Virus record (IMG/VR): IMGVR_UViG_3300000059_000098
Coordinates: 1-6,915 of that record
Strand: one strand, 5' to 3'
Source: a virus
Lineage: Duplodnaviria; Heunggongvirae; Uroviricota; Caudoviricetes
DNA length: 6,915 bases
Below, in pieces: positions 1 to 6,915 of the stretch. A model generated the notes under the pieces. That model had not been told where the DNA came from and made no database searches. It saw nothing but the letters and a program-made list of their open reading frames with translations. Position numbers and translations under genes: made by a program. Within the stretch, counting starts at the first letter, position 1. Every line of letters starts with the position of its first letter.

Positions 1-777
1 AGTGCCGCCAGCTTCGCTTCCCAACGCAGCAACATGCGGTGATTTTGCCTGTGCAACCTTTTCCATTGCCGCAGACGTACTTTCGGTATATTCAATCTTC
101 CAGTGCGGATAACGATTAAGGAATTTGCTGCATTGCTGGAATGGCTGCGGATGGCTGTAGACCGTATTGATGGTGGATAAATCAGTAGTGCCGGAGACCA
201 ACAAACAATGGTCGATAGTTAACGTCATCTCGCCAACAATCGACAAGCTGGTATGTTGCAGCAGATCGTAAACGTCGTTTATGGCACCGGAGCTGGTATT
301 TTCAATCGGTACGACGGCATAGTCGGCCTGGCCGGTTTCCACCTGATTAAAAATATCGGCAAATTTGGCGCAGCCACTTTCAATGAATTGCTCAAAGTGA
401 CGGGCAGCATACTGGCGCGCCGCAAGATGGGAATAAGAACCTTTGGGGCCGAGAAAAGCGATGCGTGCTGAGTGCGGATTAATTTTATTGAGATGTTGCT
501 GGAGCAAAGCCTGCTGAGTTAATACGGAATCTTCAATGATGAGCTGGAACAGGCGAGTAATGTAATGGGCGTCCAGATGGTGCGCTTTACCGAGCGTAAT
601 TAATCTTTCCAGCAAATCGCGTTCACGATCAATATCACGTACCGGGCGATGCGAGAGCAGTTTGGCTTTTCCCACCTCGACGGCCAGTTCGCGCCGCTCT
701 GCCAGTAATGCTAATAATTTTTCATCCAGCGCGCTGATTTTCTCTCGCAGCGCCAGTAACGGGTTTTCCGATGTCAT
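1..777 (-). CDS. pheA: Chorismate mutase / prephenate dehydratase PheA, N-terminal 259 codons (C-terminus lies beyond the left edge)
   Basis: Minus-strand frame is open from the ATG (reverse complement of 775-777) to position 1. Translation begins [41 protein letters not shown] and reaches ...[20 protein letters not shown] at the edge, which I recognise as enterobacterial PheA. Absent from the ORF track because there is no in-window stop. Confidence 0.95.
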
Positions 778-798
778 AGTGTTGCCTTTTTGTTATCA

Positions 799-828
799 AT
801 AAAAAAGGCCCCCCGATTTGGGAGGCCT
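799..828 (-). terminator. pheA attenuator terminator (leader hairpin plus U tract)
   Basis: GC-rich inverted repeat ggcccccc (807-814) / gggaggcc (820-827) with a 5-nt loop; on the minus-strand transcript it is followed by a run of U (plus-strand A-run 801-806), directly between pheL and the pheA start. Confidence 0.8.
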
Positions 829-875
829 TATTGTTCGTCTTCGCATTCTGTTTCACACGACGAAACGCCTCCCAT

Positions 876-923
876 TCAGGGGAAGGTAAAAAAGAATGCG
901 AAGAAAAACGGTGTGTGTTTCAT
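876..923 (-). CDS. pheL: phe operon leader peptide, 15 aa, [15 protein letters not shown], seven Phe codons
   Basis: Minus-strand ATG at 921-923, stop TGA at 876-878; Phe-rich leader immediately upstream of the attenuator hairpin and pheA. Too short for the ORF track. Confidence 0.9.
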   Translation of the reverse strand: [15 protein letters not shown]

Positions 924-939
924 GTTTGTTTCCTTAAGT

Positions 940-980
940 GACTTTAGTACAGTACCCGTACTGTTTTCACGCTGTCAACA
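940..980 (-). promoter_or_regulatory. pheL-pheA promoter region
   Basis: Consensus -35 TTGACA on the minus strand (plus 973-978) about 50 nt upstream of the pheL ATG. The -10 element is not confidently assigned; candidates lie around 949-956. Confidence 0.55.
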
Positions 981-983
981 AAA

Positions 984-1001
984 AACGCGCCCGAAGGTGC
1001 G
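984..1001 (-). terminator. Terminator-like hairpin insulating the pheA promoter from transcription coming from the integrase side
   Basis: Minus-strand RNA would read CGCACC-UUCG-GGCGCG followed by UUUUUU: a 6-bp stem with one A/C mismatch, a UUCG tetraloop and a U6 tract. Confidence 0.35.
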
Positions 1002-1005
1002 TTGT

Positions 1006-1091
1006 AAAACCCACTGAATTCAATGTTTTCCCTTTGTTTTCAGTGGGTTTTGTTATTGGTGGGGGTTACTGATTACCCTATAAAACCCACT
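1006..1091. repeat. Inverted and direct repeats of AAAACCCACT between the host promoter and the integrase stop; candidate att junction or integrase/IHF binding sites
   Basis: aaaacccactgaa (1006-1018) is the exact reverse complement of ttcagtgggtttt (1039-1051), a 13-bp perfect inverted repeat around a 20-nt spacer. A third direct copy, aaaacccact, lies at 1082-1091 and overlaps the integrase stop codon. Confidence 0.45.
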
Positions 1092-2080
1092 TATGTGGAT
1101 GAAATGTGGATGCCTCCTTTTAACGGATTAAGTGAAATTGCATCCTGGAGGAAATCAGGAGCGAGGTGCGCATAGGTCATAGTTTGCTGGATCGTGGCGT
1201 GCCCCATAATTCGCTGGAGCGTAAGTATATTTCCTCCATTAATCATAAAGTGAGCTGCAAAGGTATGGCGTAGAACATGTACAGCCTGTCCTTTTGGTAG
1301 GTCAGGCTTAACACTGCGGAGCACCTTGCGATATTCCTCATAATTGACGTCAAACAAAAGGCCGGATTTCTTTGTTTTGATCTCGCTAACAACTTCATCA
1401 GAGACAGGAATAATTCGAACTTTTCCGTTTTTAGTTTTGTTAAACGTCACGCGGTTATTGATGATGTGTTCCGCGCGCAGATTTTTCGCCTCTCCCCATC
1501 TCGCACCAGTACTGAGACAAAGTAGCGTAATCCGCCGGGCATCACCGCTTACTGCATCCAGTAATTTGGCGATTTCTTCCGTGGTGAGATACGTCATTTC
1601 GGGTGATTTTCGTTTCAAAGAGGGGAGGGCGCGGAGCGGATTTTCTCCGTGAAATTCCCCGGCATTTGTCAGGAGTGTAAACATTCCTCCGAGATCCGAC
1701 TCATCACGCCGAACAGTAGACTCTTTTACTCCCAAGGATAAACGGGAGCTTCGATAAGCGGCCATGAAACGAGCATTAATCTGGCTAACCCTTGGATCAT
1801 TCATTTCTTTGATGATTTTTTTCAACCTGGTTAGAACGCCGTTAGCATATGGCTTATTGCGTCCACCCAATTCCCACCATAACGGAAGCAGATCTGAGAG
1901 ATGACGTTGCTCTGTTGGTTTTTCAAGCCATTCCTTATCGTGCATGTGGCTGAGAACATAACGCTCAAAGGCCACTGCATCTGCCTTTTTCTTAAAAATC
2001 CGCTGAATCCGACGTCCACTTCGGCCACGCGGTCTAACATCCACTTTATACCGTCCACCATCGAGCGCTTTAATTGCCAT
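1091..2080 (-). CDS. int: Phage tyrosine integrase, P2 Int-like (329 aa from MAIKALDGGRYKV...)
   Basis: Complete minus-strand ORF. Tyrosine-recombinase catalytic residues are visible in order: TGARWGEA (Arg), HVLRHTF (His-x-x-Arg), and MTYAHL (Tyr) near the C-terminus. The N-terminus MAIKALDGGRYKVDVRPRGR resembles P2 Int as I recall it. Start chosen at 2080 because GGAGGG lies 8 nt upstream; the track's ATG at 2113 has no Shine-Dalgarno sequence. Confidence 0.9.
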   Translation of the reverse strand: MAIKALDGGRYKVDVRPRGRSGRRIQRIFKKKADAVAFERYVLSHMHDKEWLEKPTEQRHLSDLLPLWWELGGRNKPYANGVLTRLKKIIKEMNDPRVSQINARFMAAYRSSRLSLGVKESTVRRDESDLGGMFTLLTNAGEFHGENPLRALPSLKRKSPEMTYLTTEEIAKLLDAVSGDARRITLLCLSTGARWGEAKNLRAEHIINNRVTFNKTKNGKVRIIPVSDEVVSEIKTKKSGLLFDVNYEEYRKVLRSVKPDLPKGQAVHVLRHTFAAHFMINGGNILTLQRIMGHATIQQTMTYAHLAPDFLQDAISLNPLKGGIHISST

Positions 2081-2146
2081 TGGCAAGCCCTCCGGTGAAA
2101 CGAGGAAAGACATTTCCAGTTTGTAAAACGTAAGAATAATAAAGGG

Positions 2147-2449
2147 TTAACCAATTTTCCTTTCGGATGGGGGTAAATCCGTTGGTTCTTGCCCATAGTG
2201 TGCGAGAGCCGGAGCTATCTGCCCGGATTCAGGCGCAATTTTTCCAGTCATAAACCACAACGCATATTTCTCAAATCTGGGGTTATTTAGTATTTGCTCA
2301 ATTACTTCAGCATTAGGGATGGTTTTACCGCTTTCATATCTCCACAGAGCATCACGGTTTAAACCAAGCATTTTTGCTGTATCCGGGAGGCTAGTAAGTC
2401 TCTCGCTTTCACGCATGATTTTTATGCGTTCTCCAATAGTCATACGCAT
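2147..2449 (-). CDS. C: P2 C-type immunity repressor (about 100 aa, HTH)
   Basis: Minus-strand ORF upstream of and co-oriented with int. Translation MRMTIGERIKIMRESERLTSLPDTAKMLGLNRDALWRYESGKTIP...FEKYALWFMTGKIAPESGQIAPALAHYGQ matches my recollection of the 99-aa P2 C repressor in length, HTH position and the C-terminal IAPESGQIAPALAH segment. Start set at the first ATG (2449), which has GGAGAA 7 nt upstream; the track starts at a TTG at 2464. Confidence 0.8.
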   Translation of the reverse strand: MRMTIGERIKIMRESERLTSLPDTAKMLGLNRDALWRYESGKTIPNAEVIEQILNNPRFEKYALWFMTGKIAPESGQIAPALAHYGQEPTDLPPSERKIG

Positions 2450-2544
2450 GTTGCAATTCTCCAACGTCTGTATTAATGTTTATACAAATGAGTTTGATTT
2501 GGGGCATCCGTCGCAAGAAATACCCCAAACAGGGAGATTATCAC
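2450..2544. promoter_or_regulatory. Divergent switch region between the repressor (leftward) and cox (rightward); expected Pc/Pe promoters and operators
   Basis: 95-bp AT-rich intergenic region between divergent genes. A candidate rightward promoter is TTGCAA (2451-2456) with ATTAAT 16 nt downstream (2473-2478). A 7-bp inverted repeat tttgggg (2498-2504) / ccccaaa (2523-2529) sits just upstream of the cox ribosome-binding site. Operator assignments are not resolved. Confidence 0.5.
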
Positions 2545-2871
2545 ATGAATGAAGAACTATTGAGGGCATTGTTTAAGATCCCAGACCCCATCACCGTCGA
2601 TGAGTTTTCCCGCCGCACAGGTAAGACCGAATCAGCCGTAAGAAAGTTGGTAGAGCGTCGACTCATCCCTCTAACTACTGAGCGCGAGGTTTTAGGCGAG
2701 GAAGGGAGTTCGCGCCGTCTTCTCATCCTTTGGAATGAGTGGCTCGAAATGGTCTATGACGCAACGAAACAGCTTCCTCCTGAGCGTAAAGATTGGCGCA
2801 ATCACTGGCTTAAGAAAGCCAAGAAGCTGGCGGAAGATTTGGGATTAGGCTTTCTTAATTTTGCTGCATGA
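2545..2871 (+). CDS. cox: Cox-like excisionase / early-promoter regulator (108 aa)
   Basis: ATG at 2545 with AGGGAGA 7 nt upstream; first gene of the rightward operon, divergent from the repressor as in P2. The segment ITVDEFSRRTGKTESAVRKLVERRLIP resembles the Cox/excisionase HTH, and later ILWNEWLEMVY and PPERKDWRNHW resemble corresponding P2 Cox segments (from memory). Confidence 0.65.
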   Translation: MNEELLRALFKIPDPITVDEFSRRTGKTESAVRKLVERRLIPLTTEREVLGEEGSSRRLLILWNEWLEMVYDATKQLPPERKDWRNHWLKKAKKLAEDLGLGFLNFAA

Positions 2872-2889
2872 GATGCAGGGAGTTTTGAT

Positions 2890-3231
2890 ATGAAACAGCA
2901 ACGTAATTCACGCTTTCGTAATGGTGCTGAACGTCACGCTAACCGTTTCGCTACCAGTGCATCACGCAGCAACATCCGCTACAGCCTGAGCGATACACAC
3001 GCAACGCCGGATGGCTACCCTGTAAAACAAATCGGTGAGCATGCCTGGCTGATTGAAAAAGCTGGAATCGTGGTCCACAAATGCCCACGCAATCCGTTTA
3101 CCGGAAACCGCATTTTTGCATTGAGCTGCGGCGACAATCAGTTCGGGCAGGATTTCACATTATACGAAGCACTTCGCACGGTTGATCGTCTGCTTCGCGG
3201 ACAAAGTTTTATTAAACAGGTTGATTTATAA
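2890..3231 (+). CDS. Hypothetical protein, 113 aa, basic N-terminus
   Basis: ORF with AGGGAG 7 nt upstream of the ATG, 18 bp after the cox stop. No motif I recognise. Confidence 0.7.
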   Translation: MKQQRNSRFRNGAERHANRFATSASRSNIRYSLSDTHATPDGYPVKQIGEHAWLIEKAGIVVHKCPRNPFTGNRIFALSCGDNQFGQDFTLYEALRTVDRLLRGQSFIKQVDL

Positions 3232-3241
3232 CAGGTGATTT

Positions 3242-3520
3242 ATGACCAAAGAGTATGCACAAGGTGTATTTATCCGTTTTATTGATTTTCGCGGTGAACT
3301 GTTGTTACGTGCATCAGCTATTGATGCTGTAGCCCAGGCAGAAAAAAAAGCAGTTACTCACGTTTATGCGAACAACGCGCAACTGATCGTGGAGCTTCCG
3401 TACCAGACTGTACGTGAAGCCATTAGCGAAGCTGAAAAGGCACGTCAGATTAATAGCGATGAACCATACATCGAAATTATCTGCATGGATTCAAAAGCAG
3501 AAATCCAGAAGGCAGATTAA
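3242..3520 (+). CDS. Hypothetical protein, 92 aa
   Basis: ORF 10 bp after the previous stop with a GGTGA Shine-Dalgarno-like sequence; the same strand and tight packing support it as coding. Confidence 0.7.
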   Translation: MTKEYAQGVFIRFIDFRGELLLRASAIDAVAQAEKKAVTHVYANNAQLIVELPYQTVREAISEAEKARQINSDEPYIEIICMDSKAEIQKAD

Positions 3521-3531
3521 AGGGCGTTGCA

Positions 3532-3774
3532 ATGGACCAGGAATACAAAACTCTCGTCAATAAAGCACTTGAGCGCTTTCATTTTCGCATAAGCGCATCA
3601 GGCACTCATGCTGAGCTCGCAGCCCGAGAGTCATTGACCAGGGCCATCAAGAGTATATACGACACAGCTTTTTACATTGACGACCCGGACGCGCTCGACG
3701 AGCTTTCCATACTCGTCTGCGCCGCAGAAAACGGGGACCATATTGAGCCATATAAACTGGGGAATATTGCATGA
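3532..3774 (+). CDS. Hypothetical protein, 80 aa, acidic
   Basis: ORF 11 bp after the previous stop; its stop overlaps the start of the next small ORF (ATGA). Confidence 0.7.
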   Translation: MDQEYKTLVNKALERFHFRISASGTHAELAARESLTRAIKSIYDTAFYIDDPDALDELSILVCAAENGDHIEPYKLGNIA

Positions 3775-3884
3775 GTATATTTATCTCATGGCTTGTTCTG
3801 ATTATTTCGGTGGCCTGCGCCATTGGGATTATGCGAATTATTCATTCAGTAAAAAAGATTGAACGCTTTTTCACTGGTGAATAA
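3771..3884 (+). CDS. Small hydrophobic membrane peptide, 37 aa (MSIFISWLVLIISVACAIGIMRIIHSVKKIERFFTGE)
   Basis: ATG at 3771 overlaps the stop of the upstream gene (ATGA), with GGGGAA 7 nt upstream. It has one predicted transmembrane helix followed by a basic tail. Below the ORF-track size cutoff. Confidence 0.5.
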   Translation: MSIFISWLVLIISVACAIGIMRIIHSVKKIERFFTGE

Positions 3885-3977
3885 CGATACAAATAAAACA
3901 TCAAATTAAATAAGAAAACGTGAAAACCATCCGTATTAACGGAGGTATTCGCACACGAAAATAACGGAGATACAAAA
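3885..3977 (+). promoter_or_regulatory. AT-rich intergenic region with direct repeat TAACGGAG x2; possible internal promoter or regulator site
   Basis: 93-bp non-coding gap inside an otherwise tightly packed operon. TAACGGAG occurs at 3937-3944 and 3963-3970; the second copy supplies the Shine-Dalgarno sequence for the ORF at 3978. Confidence 0.25.
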
Positions 3978-4388
3978 ATGCACGCAAAAGAAGAAGGTAT
4001 CATCAGAGCACTGAAAGAAATTTCAAAGACAGAAAACGAAGTAGCGAAAAAAGCCATAGCAAATAATCATATGGACGTCGCAACCCACACACTGATAGTC
4101 GCAAGAGTCACGGCAGAAGCAGCCGAAATTATCGCACAACAGGATGCTGAACTGGCGGTTCTCAGAACACAACCAGTCACCGGACTGGATTTGTCTAACA
4201 CCGGACGCCTTATTTACACAATTGGCTCGGAGCTACAGCGATACACCATTATCGCCGGGTTACAGGATAAATACCTGATCACTCCTCACCCCATAAGGGA
4301 ATCAGAAATTCTGACAAATCTCCGCCTGATAGAGCGCTCTCAAGTCGCATTCATTGATGACGCACAGTGCACCGTATTTAACGCATAG
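3978..4388 (+). CDS. Hypothetical protein, 136 aa
   Basis: ORF with GGAGA 7 nt upstream. No motif I recognise. Confidence 0.75.
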   Translation: MHAKEEGIIRALKEISKTENEVAKKAIANNHMDVATHTLIVARVTAEAAEIIAQQDAELAVLRTQPVTGLDLSNTGRLIYTIGSELQRYTIIAGLQDKYLITPHPIRESEILTNLRLIERSQVAFIDDAQCTVFNA

Positions 4389-4411
4389 GGTTACTGGACA
4401 AAGGGGGCGCA

Positions 4412-4615
4412 ATGGCAATTAAGCATTTTCCCGTCGTTCGCTTTACCTCCAGAGGGCGCGAATACGAGGTCGACGAACGCCTGATTACCACTATCGACAA
4501 ACATCGTTCGGAAAAGGATGCACACCACATCTACCTCACTGACGGCACTTACTTCTGCGCCACGAATGTGGTGCGGGTGAACCTTATCCGACAGGTACAG
4601 GAGTCACGCAGATGA
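4412..4615 (+). CDS. Hypothetical protein, 67 aa
   Basis: ORF with AAGGGGG upstream; first of six consecutive genes that each overlap the next by ATGA. Confidence 0.7.
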   Translation: MAIKHFPVVRFTSRGREYEVDERLITTIDKHRSEKDAHHIYLTDGTYFCATNVVRVNLIRQVQESRR

Positions 4616-4878
4616 CCATTCTGGACTATATCGCTACTCATCCGGGTTGTAGCGGCGGAGAAATCGCCGCAGCACTGAATACTCCAACCACAGCCATTAA
4701 TGCTGAGTTACGCCGACTTTGGCGCAGCGGCTTAGTCATCAGAACAAACCGCAGCACAGGTGGTCACGCTCGCAAAACAGGAGGCCGGGCTTCTTACCAC
4801 GTAAACCCGATGCCGTTCGGGTGTGGCAACCCACTAACCCACATGTTTAACCAGCTACTGAAGGAAGCCAGAGCATGA
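4612..4878 (+). CDS. Small predicted winged-helix DNA-binding protein, 88 aa
   Basis: ATGA overlap with the upstream gene; AGGAG 8 nt upstream. The segment GEIAAALNTPTTAINAELRRLWRSGLVIRT looks like a helix-turn-helix plus wing. Fold assignment is by eye only. Confidence 0.7.
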   Translation: MTILDYIATHPGCSGGEIAAALNTPTTAINAELRRLWRSGLVIRTNRSTGGHARKTGGRASYHVNPMPFGCGNPLTHMFNQLLKEARA

Positions 4879-4997
4879 GCACCATCAACCACCAGGAACC
4901 ACGCGAACTGGCGACTGCCGTACAAAGAATGTCTACCCAAAAATCACTGCCATTCCGTGTGAGCCCTGTCCGACGGGTACAGGAGTCACACGGATGA
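4875..4997 (+). CDS. Small ORF, 40 aa (MSTINHQEPRELATAVQRMSTQKSLPFRVSPVRRVQESHG)
   Basis: ATGA overlap at both ends; AAGGAAG 7 nt upstream. Its C-terminus and 3' end duplicate those of the 67-aa gene. Below the ORF-track size cutoff. Confidence 0.45.
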   Translation: MSTINHQEPRELATAVQRMSTQKSLPFRVSPVRRVQESHG

Positions 4998-5212
4998 ACA
5001 GAAGGAGAATTACACGCAGACATCGCCGCACGCGCCTGAGCTCCCCGCCAACACTAAAGGAACTCATTCAAAGCGAGATCGGTGATTTCTTCGCTGGGTT
5101 TGGATCACCTAGCGAACCAGAAACACCAGAAGCGATGCAGCGCGAACTCATGATGCGCATCGATAACGTTTTTGACTTTTTCCTGAATAACAAAAGAGAG
5201 CAACCGACATGA
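4994..5212 (+). CDS. Hypothetical protein, 72 aa, arginine-rich N-terminus (MNRRRITRRHRRTR) and acidic C-terminal half
   Basis: ATGA overlap with the upstream gene; AGGAG 8 nt upstream. Confidence 0.65.
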   Translation: MNRRRITRRHRRTRLSSPPTLKELIQSEIGDFFAGFGSPSEPETPEAMQRELMMRIDNVFDFFLNNKREQPT

Positions 5213-5421
5213 ACGAAAAGACCTGGTTTCGCGCATACATGTGGGCGCTGGTATGCGTCCTCTTTTCTCTCATTCTGTATGCGGGACTACTCCCCCGAAT
5301 GATTTCATCAGACAGCTCCTTCCTGGTATTGCTGGGCATTTTTGTCGCCTTGCTGTACCCGGCGGGCGTTGTCCGCTTTTTCAGTAACTACATCAAAGCA
5401 ACTATGGAAACCAAACAATGA
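5209..5421 (+). CDS. Small integral membrane protein, 70 aa, two predicted TM helices
   Basis: ATGA overlaps at both ends. Hydrophobic segments WALVCVLFSLILYAGLL and FLVLLGIFVALLYPAGVV. Confidence 0.7.
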   Translation: MNEKTWFRAYMWALVCVLFSLILYAGLLPRMISSDSSFLVLLGIFVALLYPAGVVRFFSNYIKATMETKQ

Positions 5422-6242
5422 AAAAACTATTACCACTCATCCCTCTCCTGATGACCACACTTCTGGTTGGCTGTGACCGCGTGGAGCCGGGCAATGTAGG
5501 CATCAAAGTCAACAAACTGGGCGACGACAAAGGCGTCGGTGAAGTGGTTGGCGTTGGCCGCTACTGGACAGGCTGGAATACCGAGGTTTACATCTTCCCG
5601 ACCTTCAAACAAATGAAGACCTACGATGAGCCGTTCAGCTTTCAGATGAGTGACGGCACAACCATCGGCTATCACATCGGTGTGGCCTACAAGGTTGATC
5701 CATCCAAAGTTACTACAGTGTTTCAGACCTACCGCAAAGGCGTGGATGACATTACCGACACTGACCTGCGCCAGAAGATCGCCGATGCACTCAACCGACT
5801 GGCCAGCAAAATGACCACCGATAAGTTTATCGACGGTGGTAAGTCTGAACTGCTGGACTCAGCACTTAAAGATATTCAGGAAGAGATGACCCCCATCGGC
5901 ATTCAGGTCATGAGCCTCTCTTATGTCGGTAAACCGGAATATCCGCCAACCGTTATTGACAGCATTAACGCCAAAGTCACGGCAAACCAGAAAACCCTGC
6001 AACGCGAACAGGAAGTCAAGCAACGCGAAGCAGAAGCCAACATGCTGCGCGCAGAAGCTGCCGGACAGGCTGATGCCATTCGCACAAAAGCCCAGGCTGA
6101 AGCCGACGCCATTCGTTTACGCGGTGAAGCTCTGCGCCAGAATCCCGGCGTTATGGAGCTGGAAGCAATCAACAAATGGAACGGCACGCTGCCGCAATAC
6201 ATGACCAGCAACACCGCTGTTCCGTTTGTTCCGGTGAAGTAA
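5418..6242 (+). CDS. SPFH / band-7 (stomatin-prohibitin-flotillin-HflK/C) domain lipoprotein, 274 aa
   Basis: The N-terminus MKKLLPLIPLLMTTLLVGC-D has a signal peptide with lipobox LVGC and Asp at +2, predicting an inner-membrane lipoprotein. The body has SPFH-like composition and ends in an Ala/Glu/Arg/Gln-rich coiled-coil-like tail, as in HflK/HflC-type proteins. Confidence 0.85.
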   Translation: MKKLLPLIPLLMTTLLVGCDRVEPGNVGIKVNKLGDDKGVGEVVGVGRYWTGWNTEVYIFPTFKQMKTYDEPFSFQMSDGTTIGYHIGVAYKVDPSKVTTVFQTYRKGVDDITDTDLRQKIADALNRLASKMTTDKFIDGGKSELLDSALKDIQEEMTPIGIQVMSLSYVGKPEYPPTVIDSINAKVTANQKTLQREQEVKQREAEANMLRAEAAGQADAIRTKAQAEADAIRLRGEALRQNPGVMELEAINKWNGTLPQYMTSNTAVPFVPVK

Positions 6243-6248
6243 TTAAAC

Positions 6249-6273
6249 CCGGCCAGTGAAAATCGCTGGCCGG
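6249..6273 (+). other. Stem-loop after the SPFH gene (8-bp perfect stem, 9-nt loop)
   Basis: ccggccag (6249-6256) / ctggccgg (6266-6273). A T6 run follows only at 6287-6292, so it is not a canonical intrinsic terminator. Confidence 0.3.
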
Positions 6274-6319
6274 AGCAGTATCAGGATTTTTTAGTATGCC
6301 GTTCTCACAAAAAAACCGC

Positions 6320-6349
6320 TTGCCATGCCTCAATAGGTCAGGTTACATT
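6320..6349 (+). promoter_or_regulatory. Candidate promoter for the antisense-RNA / icd-like transcript
   Basis: TTGCCA (6320-6325), 18-nt spacer, TACATT (6344-6349). A moderate match only; placed just upstream of the first sense target block. Confidence 0.3.
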
Positions 6350-6380
6350 TCCGCTGCACCTCATAAAACGGGTGCCGGGA

Positions 6381-6404
6381 TTCTCAACCCGACACAGAGC
6401 AAAG
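6381..6404 (+). promoter_or_regulatory. Upstream sense target pair (a1/b1-like) for the c4-like RNA
   Basis: ttctcaac (6381-6388) and agagcaaag (6396-6404) are exact reverse complements of gttgagaa (6524-6531) and ctttgctct (6510-6518). Confidence 0.4.
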
Positions 6405-6410
6405 CGCATA

Positions 6411-6431
6411 ACCGCGCAAGCGGTTTTTTTG
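6411..6431 (+). terminator. Short hairpin with GCAA tetraloop and U7 tract; possible terminator or attenuator
   Basis: accgc-gcaa-gcggt followed by ttttttt (6425-6431). The 3' arm can alternatively pair long-range with accgcttgc at 6315-6323. Confidence 0.35.
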
Positions 6432-6471
6432 TGCGTACTGTATCGCCACGTCTTTTTCGCGTCAGAATTAT

Positions 6472-6547
6472 GGCGGGGCGTACGGGGCCGACTTTGGTCG
6501 GGCCGGATTCTTTGCTCTCCGGTGTTGAGAACCCTGTACGTCTCGCC
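6472..6547 (+). ncRNA. Candidate c4 / CI-type antisense immunity RNA (76 nt)
   Basis: ggcggggcgtacgggg (6472-6487) pairs with ccctgtacgtctcgcc (6532-6547) as a 16-bp closing stem with three G-U pairs. Inside are a 5-bp hairpin (6488-6501) and a second hairpin (6503-6507 / 6518-6522) whose loop carries ctttgctc, followed by single-stranded gttgagaa. These two segments are exactly complementary to two sites repeated upstream (6381-6404) and at the RBS of the downstream ORF (6557-6601). Confidence 0.45.
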
Positions 6548-6556
6548 ACCCCGAGA

Positions 6557-6602
6557 TTCTCAACTCTGGATGGTGAGTTATTTCTATCACCGAGCAAAGA
6601 GG
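6557..6602 (+). promoter_or_regulatory. Downstream sense target pair (a2/b2-like) overlapping the ribosome-binding site of the 76-aa ORF
   Basis: ttctcaac (6557-6564) and gagcaaagag (6592-6601); the second block covers the AAGAGG Shine-Dalgarno sequence at 6597-6602, 7 nt before the ATG at 6610. Confidence 0.4.
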
Positions 6603-6609
6603 CCACACC

Positions 6610-6840
6610 ATGGCAAACCGCAAACAGCACCGCGCTATCGCGGAGCGTCGTCACATCCAGACTGAAATCAACCGCAGACTTTCCCGCGCATTCCGCGTCG
6701 CTAAAATCATGCACATCAATATGTTGCATGAGCGTAGCTGCGAACTTTCAAACCTCTATTCATCCGCTGTTTTCAGCTATCTGGCGGATGATCTGCGCGA
6801 GCTTCAGCAGCTCATTCAGCAGCAAAACAAACTCCATTAA
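6610..6840 (+). CDS. Small basic protein, 76 aa; possibly an Icd-like first gene of an antirepressor operon
   Basis: ORF with a strong AAGAGG 7 nt upstream. Its position directly after a c4-like RNA and its target sites parallels the P1 c4-icd-ant layout. Functional assignment is by context only. Confidence 0.6.
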   Translation: MANRKQHRAIAERRHIQTEINRRLSRAFRVAKIMHINMLHERSCELSNLYSSAVFSYLADDLRELQQLIQQQNKLH

Positions 6841-6915
6841 TTCCTGTTCCGGGCCTTTCCTGCACCTTGCGGCGGGAGGCCTTCGCACATCTGTAGTAAA
6901 GAGGATTGCCGCAAT

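Follow-up and report, generated by a model that had tools for sequence, protein, structure and literature searches.

A P2-type lysogeny switch and a P4-like C4 RNA–epsilon cassette at the left end of a P88-type Escherichia coli prophage

Textbooks present P2 as the non-inducible temperate phage and 186 as the one that is inducible through Tum and LexA. How might a P2-like phage carrying a repressor of the P2 C type leave lysogeny? The question is raised by a stretch of 6,915 nucleotides (nt) of viral DNA (IMG/VR virus record IMGVR_UViG_3300000059_000098, positions 1 to 6,915; called the window here), which forms the left end of an ordinary and widely distributed Escherichia coli prophage of the P88 type (P2-like). 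Genes for an integrase (int), a repressor (C) and a Cox-like protein occupy 1091–2871. A cassette situated ∼3.5 kb beyond this block, immediately upstream of the replication gene A region, comprises an IsrK-like leader RNA, a C4-type antisense RNA and an open reading frame (ORF) of 76 amino acids (aa) related to the epsilon gene of the satellite phage P4. We consider it fairly probable that these parts form one circuit, a P2-type switch joined to an RNA-gated epsilon cassette, in which the epsilon-like protein would inactivate the phage's own C and permit induction or lytic commitment independently of a protease. Features are collected in Table 1. The relatives referred to most often below are the prophage of E.coli C11, phage P88 and prophage Sp13 of E.coli O157 Sakai.

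The lysogeny switch and the RNA cassette

An earlier note on this DNA had described the gene order integrase, ∼100-aa repressor and divergent Cox-like gene at 1091–2871 and had read it as a P2-type switch with a short C of the non-cleavable type. Pairwise BLASTP of the three products against their P2 counterparts confirms the order and bears out the reading. The integrase is 54% identical to P2 Int (E 1e-135), the repressor is 52% identical to P2 C (E 5e-34) and the Cox-like protein is 28% identical to P2 Cox over 79 aa (E 3e-9). The top solved-structure match of the repressor is P2 C itself (2l49/2xcj, E 4.8e-25), and a Pfam domain search of this protein returned helix-turn-helix (HTH) domains only, with no LexA/S24 peptidase domain. 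In the C-terminal helix-5 block, KY.LWFMT..IAPESGQIAPALAH, the repressor hardly differs from P2 C, and the equivalents of P2 C Thr67 and Ile70 are kept in the alignment together with the whole block that surrounds them. In P2 C, the mutations Thr67Ile and Ile70Asn weaken binding of P4 epsilon (PMC2995052).

The Cox-like protein is more diverged. Its top PDB match is P2 Cox (4lhf, E 1.7e-4) and it matches phrog_272 (E 2e-4), with a Pfam Phage_Cox score of 25.3 bits that falls below the cut-off of 27.5. The position and orientation of its gene fit those of a divergent first early gene. As judged from these matches, the divergent gene is probably a distant relative of cox that opens the rightward early operon, and 1091–2871 is a P2-type lysogeny switch with a C repressor predicted to be free of any protease domain. 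The starts given for int, C and cox in Table 1 are the likely true ones, chosen from relatives and from the P2 alignments.

Simple scans of the switch region were less informative. No promoter passed a consensus scan of 2380–2620, which weak promoters could escape, and an 8-mer scan with one mismatch allowed found no direct-repeat operators in the intergenic region, although longer degenerate operators could escape it. The C–cox spacer does contain a 10-nt inverted repeat (2498–2507/2520–2529). An 8-nt direct repeat, TTCTCCAA, occurs at 2429–2436 and 2457–2464 with a spacing of 28 nt; it was judged unconvincing as an operator pair, one copy being within the C coding sequence and the other being the C ribosome-binding site.

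The c4-like RNA that the earlier note had placed in the same element proved to be a bona fide, full-length Rfam C4 at 6466–6553. Its segment b′ (6509–6518) lies in the loop of hairpin 2 and its segment a′ (6524–6531) in a single-stranded junction, and both are exactly complementary to sites upstream of C4, inside the IsrK-like leader (a1 and b1), and downstream of it (a2 and b2). Site b2 overlaps the Shine–Dalgarno sequence AAGAGG (6597–6602) of the ORF that starts at 6610. In the predicted fold of the unprocessed leader, a′ and b′ pair in cis with a2 and b2 and the ribosome-binding site is sequestered (z = −4.8 relative to shuffled sequences). The IsrK-like leader ends in an intrinsic terminator found by scanning (6410–6425, followed by a T run). 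The P4 counterpart of the candidate promoter, TTGCCT...GATATA, lies at an equal distance from the isrK-like leader of that phage. By these features the C4 RNA locus is real and, as far as its predicted elements go, complete.

The ORF under b2 had been called icd-like. It occupies the position of icd, but a BLASTP comparison of its 76-aa product with P1 Icd gave no alignment at E≤100, and the similarities of the protein point instead to P4 epsilon. It scores 29.5 bits against PF25738, the Pfam 'Derepression protein family' (cut-off 27), of which P4 epsilon is the exemplar with 170 bits on the same model. Identity to P4 epsilon is 29% over 66 residues, profile–profile comparison with the P4 epsilon family by hhalign gives a probability of 93.9% (E 1.6e-7), and the PHROG families of the two proteins match reciprocally. 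Both groups share an invariant FSYL..D motif along with several other unvarying columns. Database homologues number 148, from E.coli, Shigella and Salmonella, and about two thirds of the 120 listed are named 'derepression protein' by a source; across 83 loci matched by tblastn the protein is 84–100% identical. No solved structure was found for the epsilon family. From these comparisons, the 76-aa ORF is to be classed as a member of the P4 epsilon family.

Had the locus followed the P1 plan, an Icd-like peptide would be translationally coupled to a separate, larger Ant protein further downstream. The RNA part of the cassette fits the P1 layout site for site, and the order and spacing of the annotated P1 a1/b1/c4/a2/b2/icd map are reproduced in the window. 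The gene content of the relatives has nevertheless refuted this c4–icd–ant version, to which we give next to no credence: the near-identical genomes, P88 and Sp13 carry just a 121-aa ORF (phrog_3237) and then replication gene A downstream of the 76-aa ORF, whose product shows no similarity to Icd. No Ant, KilAC, Rha-type domain or Tum was found downstream in these same genomes, and orf121 neither falls into a Pfam or NCBIfam family nor resembles P4 orf151. The earlier note had treated a downstream region lacking any antirepressor as grounds for giving up its proposal. To the letter, such a region is what the relatives contain, with only orf121 and gene A further right; in spirit the proposal survives, with the small 76-aa ORF itself as the candidate antirepressor.

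Automated gene calling also places long ORFs over the two RNAs, at 6361–6729 on the minus strand and 6372–6665 on the plus strand. The Sakai ORF lying over isrK and C4 (locus L093, 8553–9170) is annotated as an 'antirepressor protein' (ECs_2630), and a 62-aa minus-strand ORF is called in P88. Such calls over structured RNA are probably spurious.

Table 1. Features of the window, with position, strand and the basis of assignment
Feature	Position	Strand	Basis and remarks
pheA leader (pheL)	799–924	−	Rfam Phe_leader, 132.2 bits; C11 annotation pheL/pheA; outside the phage, pheA further left
attL core ACAAAAAACGCGCCCGAAGGTGCGTTG	978–1004	.	Left prophage boundary, inside the raiA terminator hairpin
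Tyrosine integrase, P2 Int family, 329 aa	1091–2080	−	Pfam Int_N and Phage_integrase; phrog_1; automated ORF to 2113
Immunity repressor, P2 C family, 100 aa	2147–2449	−	HTH only; automated ORF to 2464
C–cox intergenic switch region	2450–2544	.	95 nt; presumed Pe/Pc and operators, by position only
Cox-like protein, 108 aa	2545–2871	+	Presumed excisionase and Pc repressor; automated ORF starts at 2476
Early-operon ORFs	2890–6242	+	DUF4761, phrog_3800, DUF4754, 136-aa ORF, 67-aa ORF, MarR-type winged-helix protein
Early-operon ORFs, right part	within 2890–6242	+	Disrupted Ead/Ea22-like gene, small membrane protein, SPFH lipoprotein
Candidate cassette promoter TTGCCA-18-TACATT	6320–6349	+	Consensus scan, 9/12 matches; position as P4 PLE
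IsrK/P4 seqA-like leader RNA	6356–6430	+	Rfam isrK, 61.9 bits (gathering score 50)
Target sites a1 and b1 in leader	a1 6381–6388, b1 6396–6404	+	Complementarity to C4
C4/P4 CI-type antisense RNA	6466–6553	+	Rfam C4, full length, 77.6 bits (gathering score 45), E 1.9e-14
Downstream target sites	6557–6602	+	a2 6557–6564, TTCTCAAC; b2 6592–6600, GAGCAAAGA
76-aa P4 epsilon homologue (putative derepression protein/antirepressor of P2 C)	6610–6840	+	PF25738; the icd-like ORF of the earlier note

Relatives, the P4 model and C4 specificities

The relatives identify the element as a helper-type phage with its own P2-type virion genes and not a satellite. They carry gpA, portal Q, terminase P, scaffold O, capsid N, tail genes and ogr. 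They do not match the satellite gene set of P4 (alpha primase–helicase, sid, delta and psu): P4 alpha was found downstream in 0 of 79 loci, and gpA was present in all of them. By gene content, the prophage belongs to Peduoviridae and is a Xuanwuvirus-like element of P88 type. From DUF4761 on, the early region is shared at 84–91% nucleotide identity with P88 (Xuanwuvirus P88, Peduoviridae) and its relatives P884B11, vB_EcoM-705R2, PhiR44_2 and Citrobacter phiSM. This group likewise has the isrK–C4 cassette, orf121, a 935-aa gpA, ParM/ParR and a P2-type virion module, and its 76-aa 'derepression protein' has 88–89.5% amino-acid identity to that of the window in the E.coli phages and 69.7% in Citrobacter phiSM. 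The combination of a P2-type element with the RNA module, pointed out by the earlier note, is present and is not new, being the standard early region of P88-like phages. All components are known and annotated, and the arrangement is the norm for the group.

P88 differs from the window at the switch. Its int, C and cox have no megablast match there, its C and Cox are heteroimmune variants, and its C4 recognition sequences are unlike those of the window. Because nucleotide similarity to P88 begins only at ∼2911, the int–C–cox block is best described, from the alignment, as a mosaic replacement relative to P88. P88 was recovered after mitomycin C treatment (PMC5285337). In Sp13, the cassette is 95% identical to that of the window with an identical C4 specificity, the 76-aa protein (ECs_2631) is 87% identical, and orf121, gpA and ParM follow in the same order. 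It differs in having a repressor that is not of the P2 C type (ECs_2620, 134 aa) and another small DNA-binding protein in place of Cox, in being integrated elsewhere (the yecA/leuZ region) and in having lost most virion genes. The Sp13 repressor is devoid of a peptidase motif, yet mitomycin C induced the prophage ∼30-fold, and in 2009 the authors of that work suspected its epsilon-like gene (PMC2669165).

The closest counterpart of the cassette outside this group is the immunity region of P4 (PLE–seqA–CI RNA–seqC–...–epsilon–alpha). In the P4 genome, Rfam isrK matches 8615–8692 (seqA) and Rfam C4 matches 8420–8507 (CI RNA), in the same order as in the window, a correspondence already drawn by Barquist et al. 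2013 (PMC3632133) and Hershko-Shalev et al. 2016 (PMC4825925). P4 resembles the window in having a2 immediately 3′ of the RNA and b2 over the ribosome-binding site of the ORF that comes next, and in both an epsilon-family gene (245 nt downstream of the RNA in P4) is followed by a replication gene. The spacing of the downstream sites in the window agrees with that of P4 seqC. P4 differs in its recognition sequences, in an ORF of ∼65 codons between seqC and epsilon, in an epsilon of 95 aa, and in a replication gene that is the alpha primase where the window type has gpA. Since P4 has isrK, C4 and epsilon in this order, the P4 immunity region, and not P1 immI alone, is the closest model, and on the matched elements the cassette is classed as P4-type as much as P1-type. 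The attribution to P1 made in the earlier note therefore holds for the RNA layout only, as there is neither Icd nor Ant.

Other systems resemble the window in part. The immI regions of P1 and P7 (c4–icd–ant1/2) and the secondary immunity region of N15 (cA RNA–antirepressor) share with it the C4 family, paired sites a1/b1 and a2/b2 and their spacing; P1 and P7 differ in that the window has no homologue of Icd or of Ant1/2 and no C1 operator, and in that its host phage is P2-like. The isrK–orf45–anrP region of Gifsy-1 combines a terminator-bearing leader of IsrK type with a processed RNA of ∼80 nt (STnc1160) and an antirepressor gene, and its leader RNA, IsrK, works in trans to turn on translation (PMC4825925). 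From the discussion in that paper we infer that orf45/STnc1160 may be read as C4-type. The antirepressor of Gifsy-1 differs in being of AnrP/Rha type, and its host is a lambdoid prophage. Coliphage 186 and the P2-like phage of E.coli HS are, like the window, P2-like, and are made inducible by a small antirepressor (Tum under LexA) and not by repressor self-cleavage; 186 differs in having a CI-type repressor and LexA/Tum control where the window has a repressor of P2 C type and an antisense RNA.

The recognition segments of C4 were compared across 84 loci (80 from IMG/VR contigs and 4 from genomes), each coding for a relative of the 76-aa protein; in IMG/VR as a whole, 215 stretches encode such a relative. 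A C4 RNA lies directly upstream in every one of the 84 loci that has enough flanking sequence. At least 17 combinations of a and b occur, with the RNA segments and all four targets co-varying and the stems held constant, and the a and b variants are freely recombined across loci. The window has a=TTCTCAAC and b=GAGCAAAG, and P88 has a=TTTCCAC and b=CAACTACAG. In every specificity type, b2 falls exactly on the ribosome-binding site of the 76-aa ORF. The co-variation is strong comparative evidence for functional pairing, and the variants look like immunity specificities. The same kind of combinatorial a/b variation is found in 80 P4-like satellites.

Might the cassette serve conflict between elements, with C4 silencing incoming P4-like satellites or related phages, or with the epsilon-like protein derepressing other P2-like prophages? 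Defence against satellites was proposed by Barquist et al. 2013 (PMC3632133). Helper-type and satellite cassettes share one architecture and both show combinatorial recognition diversity of the kind expected of immunity specificities under conflict, while a conserved epsilon set against diverse repressors would suit a broad-spectrum weapon. We nevertheless regard a role mainly in conflict as improbable. When the recognition segments of the helper-type loci (L013–L092) were compared with those of the satellite loci (L094–L173), no same-sense a or b specificity was common to the 84 helper-type and 80 satellite cassettes; in this sample, then, the targets of the satellites would go unrecognised by a helper C4. 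A reverse-complement relation exists in one a variant only, the helper-type target TTTCCAC (loop GTGGAAA) being the exact reverse complement of a satellite target (GTGGAAA, loop TTTCCAC). Separately, TTCTCAAC of the window is nearly the reverse complement of GTGAGAA of P4, and a loop–loop interaction between a helper C4 and a satellite CI RNA is conceivable.

A possible route to induction and the case for a replication gate

Precedents from P1, P4 and N15 suggest how a P2-type switch joined to the RNA-gated epsilon cassette could operate. In a lysogen, the cassette promoter would yield mostly the short leader RNA along with some read-through transcript, out of which C4 would be processed. C4 would pair with a2 and b2 to block translation of the epsilon-like ORF, and would probably also cause premature termination before orf121 and gene A. 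Titration of C4, either by the leader RNA acting as a decoy (as with IsrK in Gifsy-1) or by a surge of read-through from the early operon, would allow the epsilon-like protein to be made. By homology with P4 epsilon, this protein would bind C and strip it from the early promoter, and removal of C would turn on Cox, replication and the lytic pathway. Prophage P2 is released from repression when P4 epsilon binds C (Liu et al. 1998, as cited in PMC2995052 and PMC2669165). P4 epsilon thus acts on the repressor of a helper, whereas the candidate target in the window is the phage's own repressor, and we infer binding to that repressor by analogy.

Several observations weigh against such a circuit. 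The homology to epsilon is distant, at 29% identity and only 2.5 bits over the Pfam cut-off, and the promoter, the processing of C4 and the termination are all modelled on other phages. Pe, Pc and their operators were not located by simple scans of the switch region, and no operator-like motif is common to the switch region and the cassette promoter, which share no 7-mers. A search for CTGT-N8-ACAG with one mismatch at most found no LexA box in the window. The lone exact match in the full prophage and P88 lies inside gpA, has a GC-rich spacer and is not convincing. An identical 76-aa protein accompanies P2-C-type repressors that are only 33–100% identical to one another (55 loci), and it also occurs with an unrelated Sp13-type HTH repressor (10 loci) and with repressors that were not identified (10 loci). 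Because the same protein is found across repressor classes, the pattern is not what a strictly cognate anti-repressor predicts, for which co-variation would be expected. Furthermore Sp13, the sole relative with induction data, has a repressor that is not of C type.

The mismatch with the repressors, together with the lack of a convincing LexA box and of Tum (none is annotated in the C11 prophage or P88), makes it credible that the cassette acts chiefly to gate replication, as a 'second immunity' like that of P4, in which C4 silences orf121 and gene A and the 76-aa protein is a passenger or has some other role. Gene A follows the 76-aa ORF in 79 of the 79 loci with enough downstream sequence, always at a distance of 448 nt, and the 76-aa protein does not co-vary with repressor class. 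For P4, the established function of the CI RNA is to end transcription prematurely ahead of the replication genes (literature summarised in PMC4825925). We still think it rather unlikely that gating of replication is the main function. The location of b2 over the ribosome-binding site in all specificity types argues that the 76-aa ORF is a direct target of C4, and the protein is both highly conserved (84–100%) and homologous to a proven antirepressor of P2 C. Replication gating and an antirepressor role are not mutually exclusive.

A wider proposal can be made for P88-like helper-type phages in general, and we advance it tentatively, as possible but doubtful. These phages may use a P4-style, RNA-gated anti-repressor cassette as a switch for self-induction or lytic commitment that needs neither RecA cleavage nor LexA, which would explain the mitomycin C inducibility of Sp13 and P88. 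The co-varying C4 specificities would then form a second, RNA-based layer of immunity whose diversification is independent of the protein repressor, with cross-talk to the CI RNAs of satellites as a possibility. If this were so, P88-type phages would represent a third design beside P2 and 186, in which a P2-type repressor is set against an epsilon-type antirepressor under an antisense RNA. The induction of Sp13 in O157, noted in 2009 as lacking an explanation, would also gain a mechanism, the immunity/derepression module of P4 satellites and that of their helpers would share an origin, and at least 17 orthogonal RNA–RNA recognition pairs would be available as a natural set. We found no published statement that helper-type phages keep an epsilon-like gene under a C4/CI-type RNA whose specificities are many and co-vary; C4/CI control of this kind is a modest extension and not a new kind of system.

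The prophage, its integration site and neighboring genes

The window runs from the chromosome across the prophage junction (pheL | attL) and takes in the first ∼5.9 kb of the prophage. Its leftmost ∼980 bases are an E.coli-type chromosomal flank with the 5′ part of pheA and the pheL leader. The top chromosomal match is E.coli C11 (96.1% identity over 100% of the window), and 92 of 5426 complete E.coli genomes cover at least 80% of it. The attL site and the right junction, beside raiA in C11, form a direct repeat of 20 nt exactly, or of 27 nt with one mismatch, and the core common to both junctions is ACAAAAAACGCGCCCGAAGG(T/C)GCGTTG (978–1004 in the window). From the core to the int stop codon is 87 nt. 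The raiA–pheL spacer is uninterrupted in O157 Sakai, and this empty site together with the junction core indicates that the phage integrates in the raiA terminator hairpin. No tRNA was found, and a tRNA was rejected as the integration target in favor of the raiA terminator. The hairpin of this rho-independent terminator is mostly rebuilt at attR (C11 right junction, locus L008, 11882–11908). Weak Rfam matches to SpF19 (975–1061) and Arrc14 (794–940), which overlap the att site and the pheL leader, are below their gathering thresholds and were taken as chance.

To the right of pheL, C11 has a complete P2-like prophage of roughly 37 kb. It begins with int, the HTH repressor, the early genes, a 935-aa replication endonuclease (Pfam Phage_GPA) and ParM/ParR, continues with portal, terminase, GPO scaffold, P2-family capsid, lysis and baseplate genes, and ends with tail fibres, sheath and tube, tape measure, ogr, a few morons and raiA.

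The early-operon genes between cox and the RNA cassette (2890–6242) are also present in P88 and Sp13. Among them, the 88-aa MarR-type winged-helix protein (4612–4878), whose ORF overlaps the stop of the preceding 67-aa ORF by 4 nt, is conserved in P88-like early operons and is a second candidate regulator. The Ead/Ea22-like gene at 4875–5212 is broken, with an ORF at 4994–5212 that matches just the C-terminal two thirds of phrog_4144; its counterpart is annotated as two partial pseudogenes in C11 and is intact in P88. The segment 5209–6242 encodes a small membrane protein (70 aa) and an SPFH/Band-7 lipoprotein (274 aa) and looks like a shuttling moron. Many Stx2 phages have a counterpart of its part ∼5469–6208, with ∼92% identity, that carries the annotation 'serine protease'.

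Gene A of the relatives (locus L001, 27282–30089) encodes 935 aa with the Phage_GPA domain starting at residue 179, which gives an N-terminal extension of ∼180 aa relative to the Pfam domain, and it has a long C-terminal part that received no domain assignment. In integrated P88-like prophages, gene A is closely followed by a plasmid-partition pair, ParM/ParR (StbA/StbB; L001, 30166–31441; L002, 8856–10131; L093, 12438–13716). Such a pair is odd for an integrating P2-like phage, and its presence hints at a plasmid phase. At the right end of the C11 prophage, from ogr to attR (L008, 10068–11780), there are genes for a Hok/Gef toxin and a TM2-domain protein, and the same stretch encodes a Com-like regulator and a DNA methyltransferase in an arrangement like com/mom of Mu.

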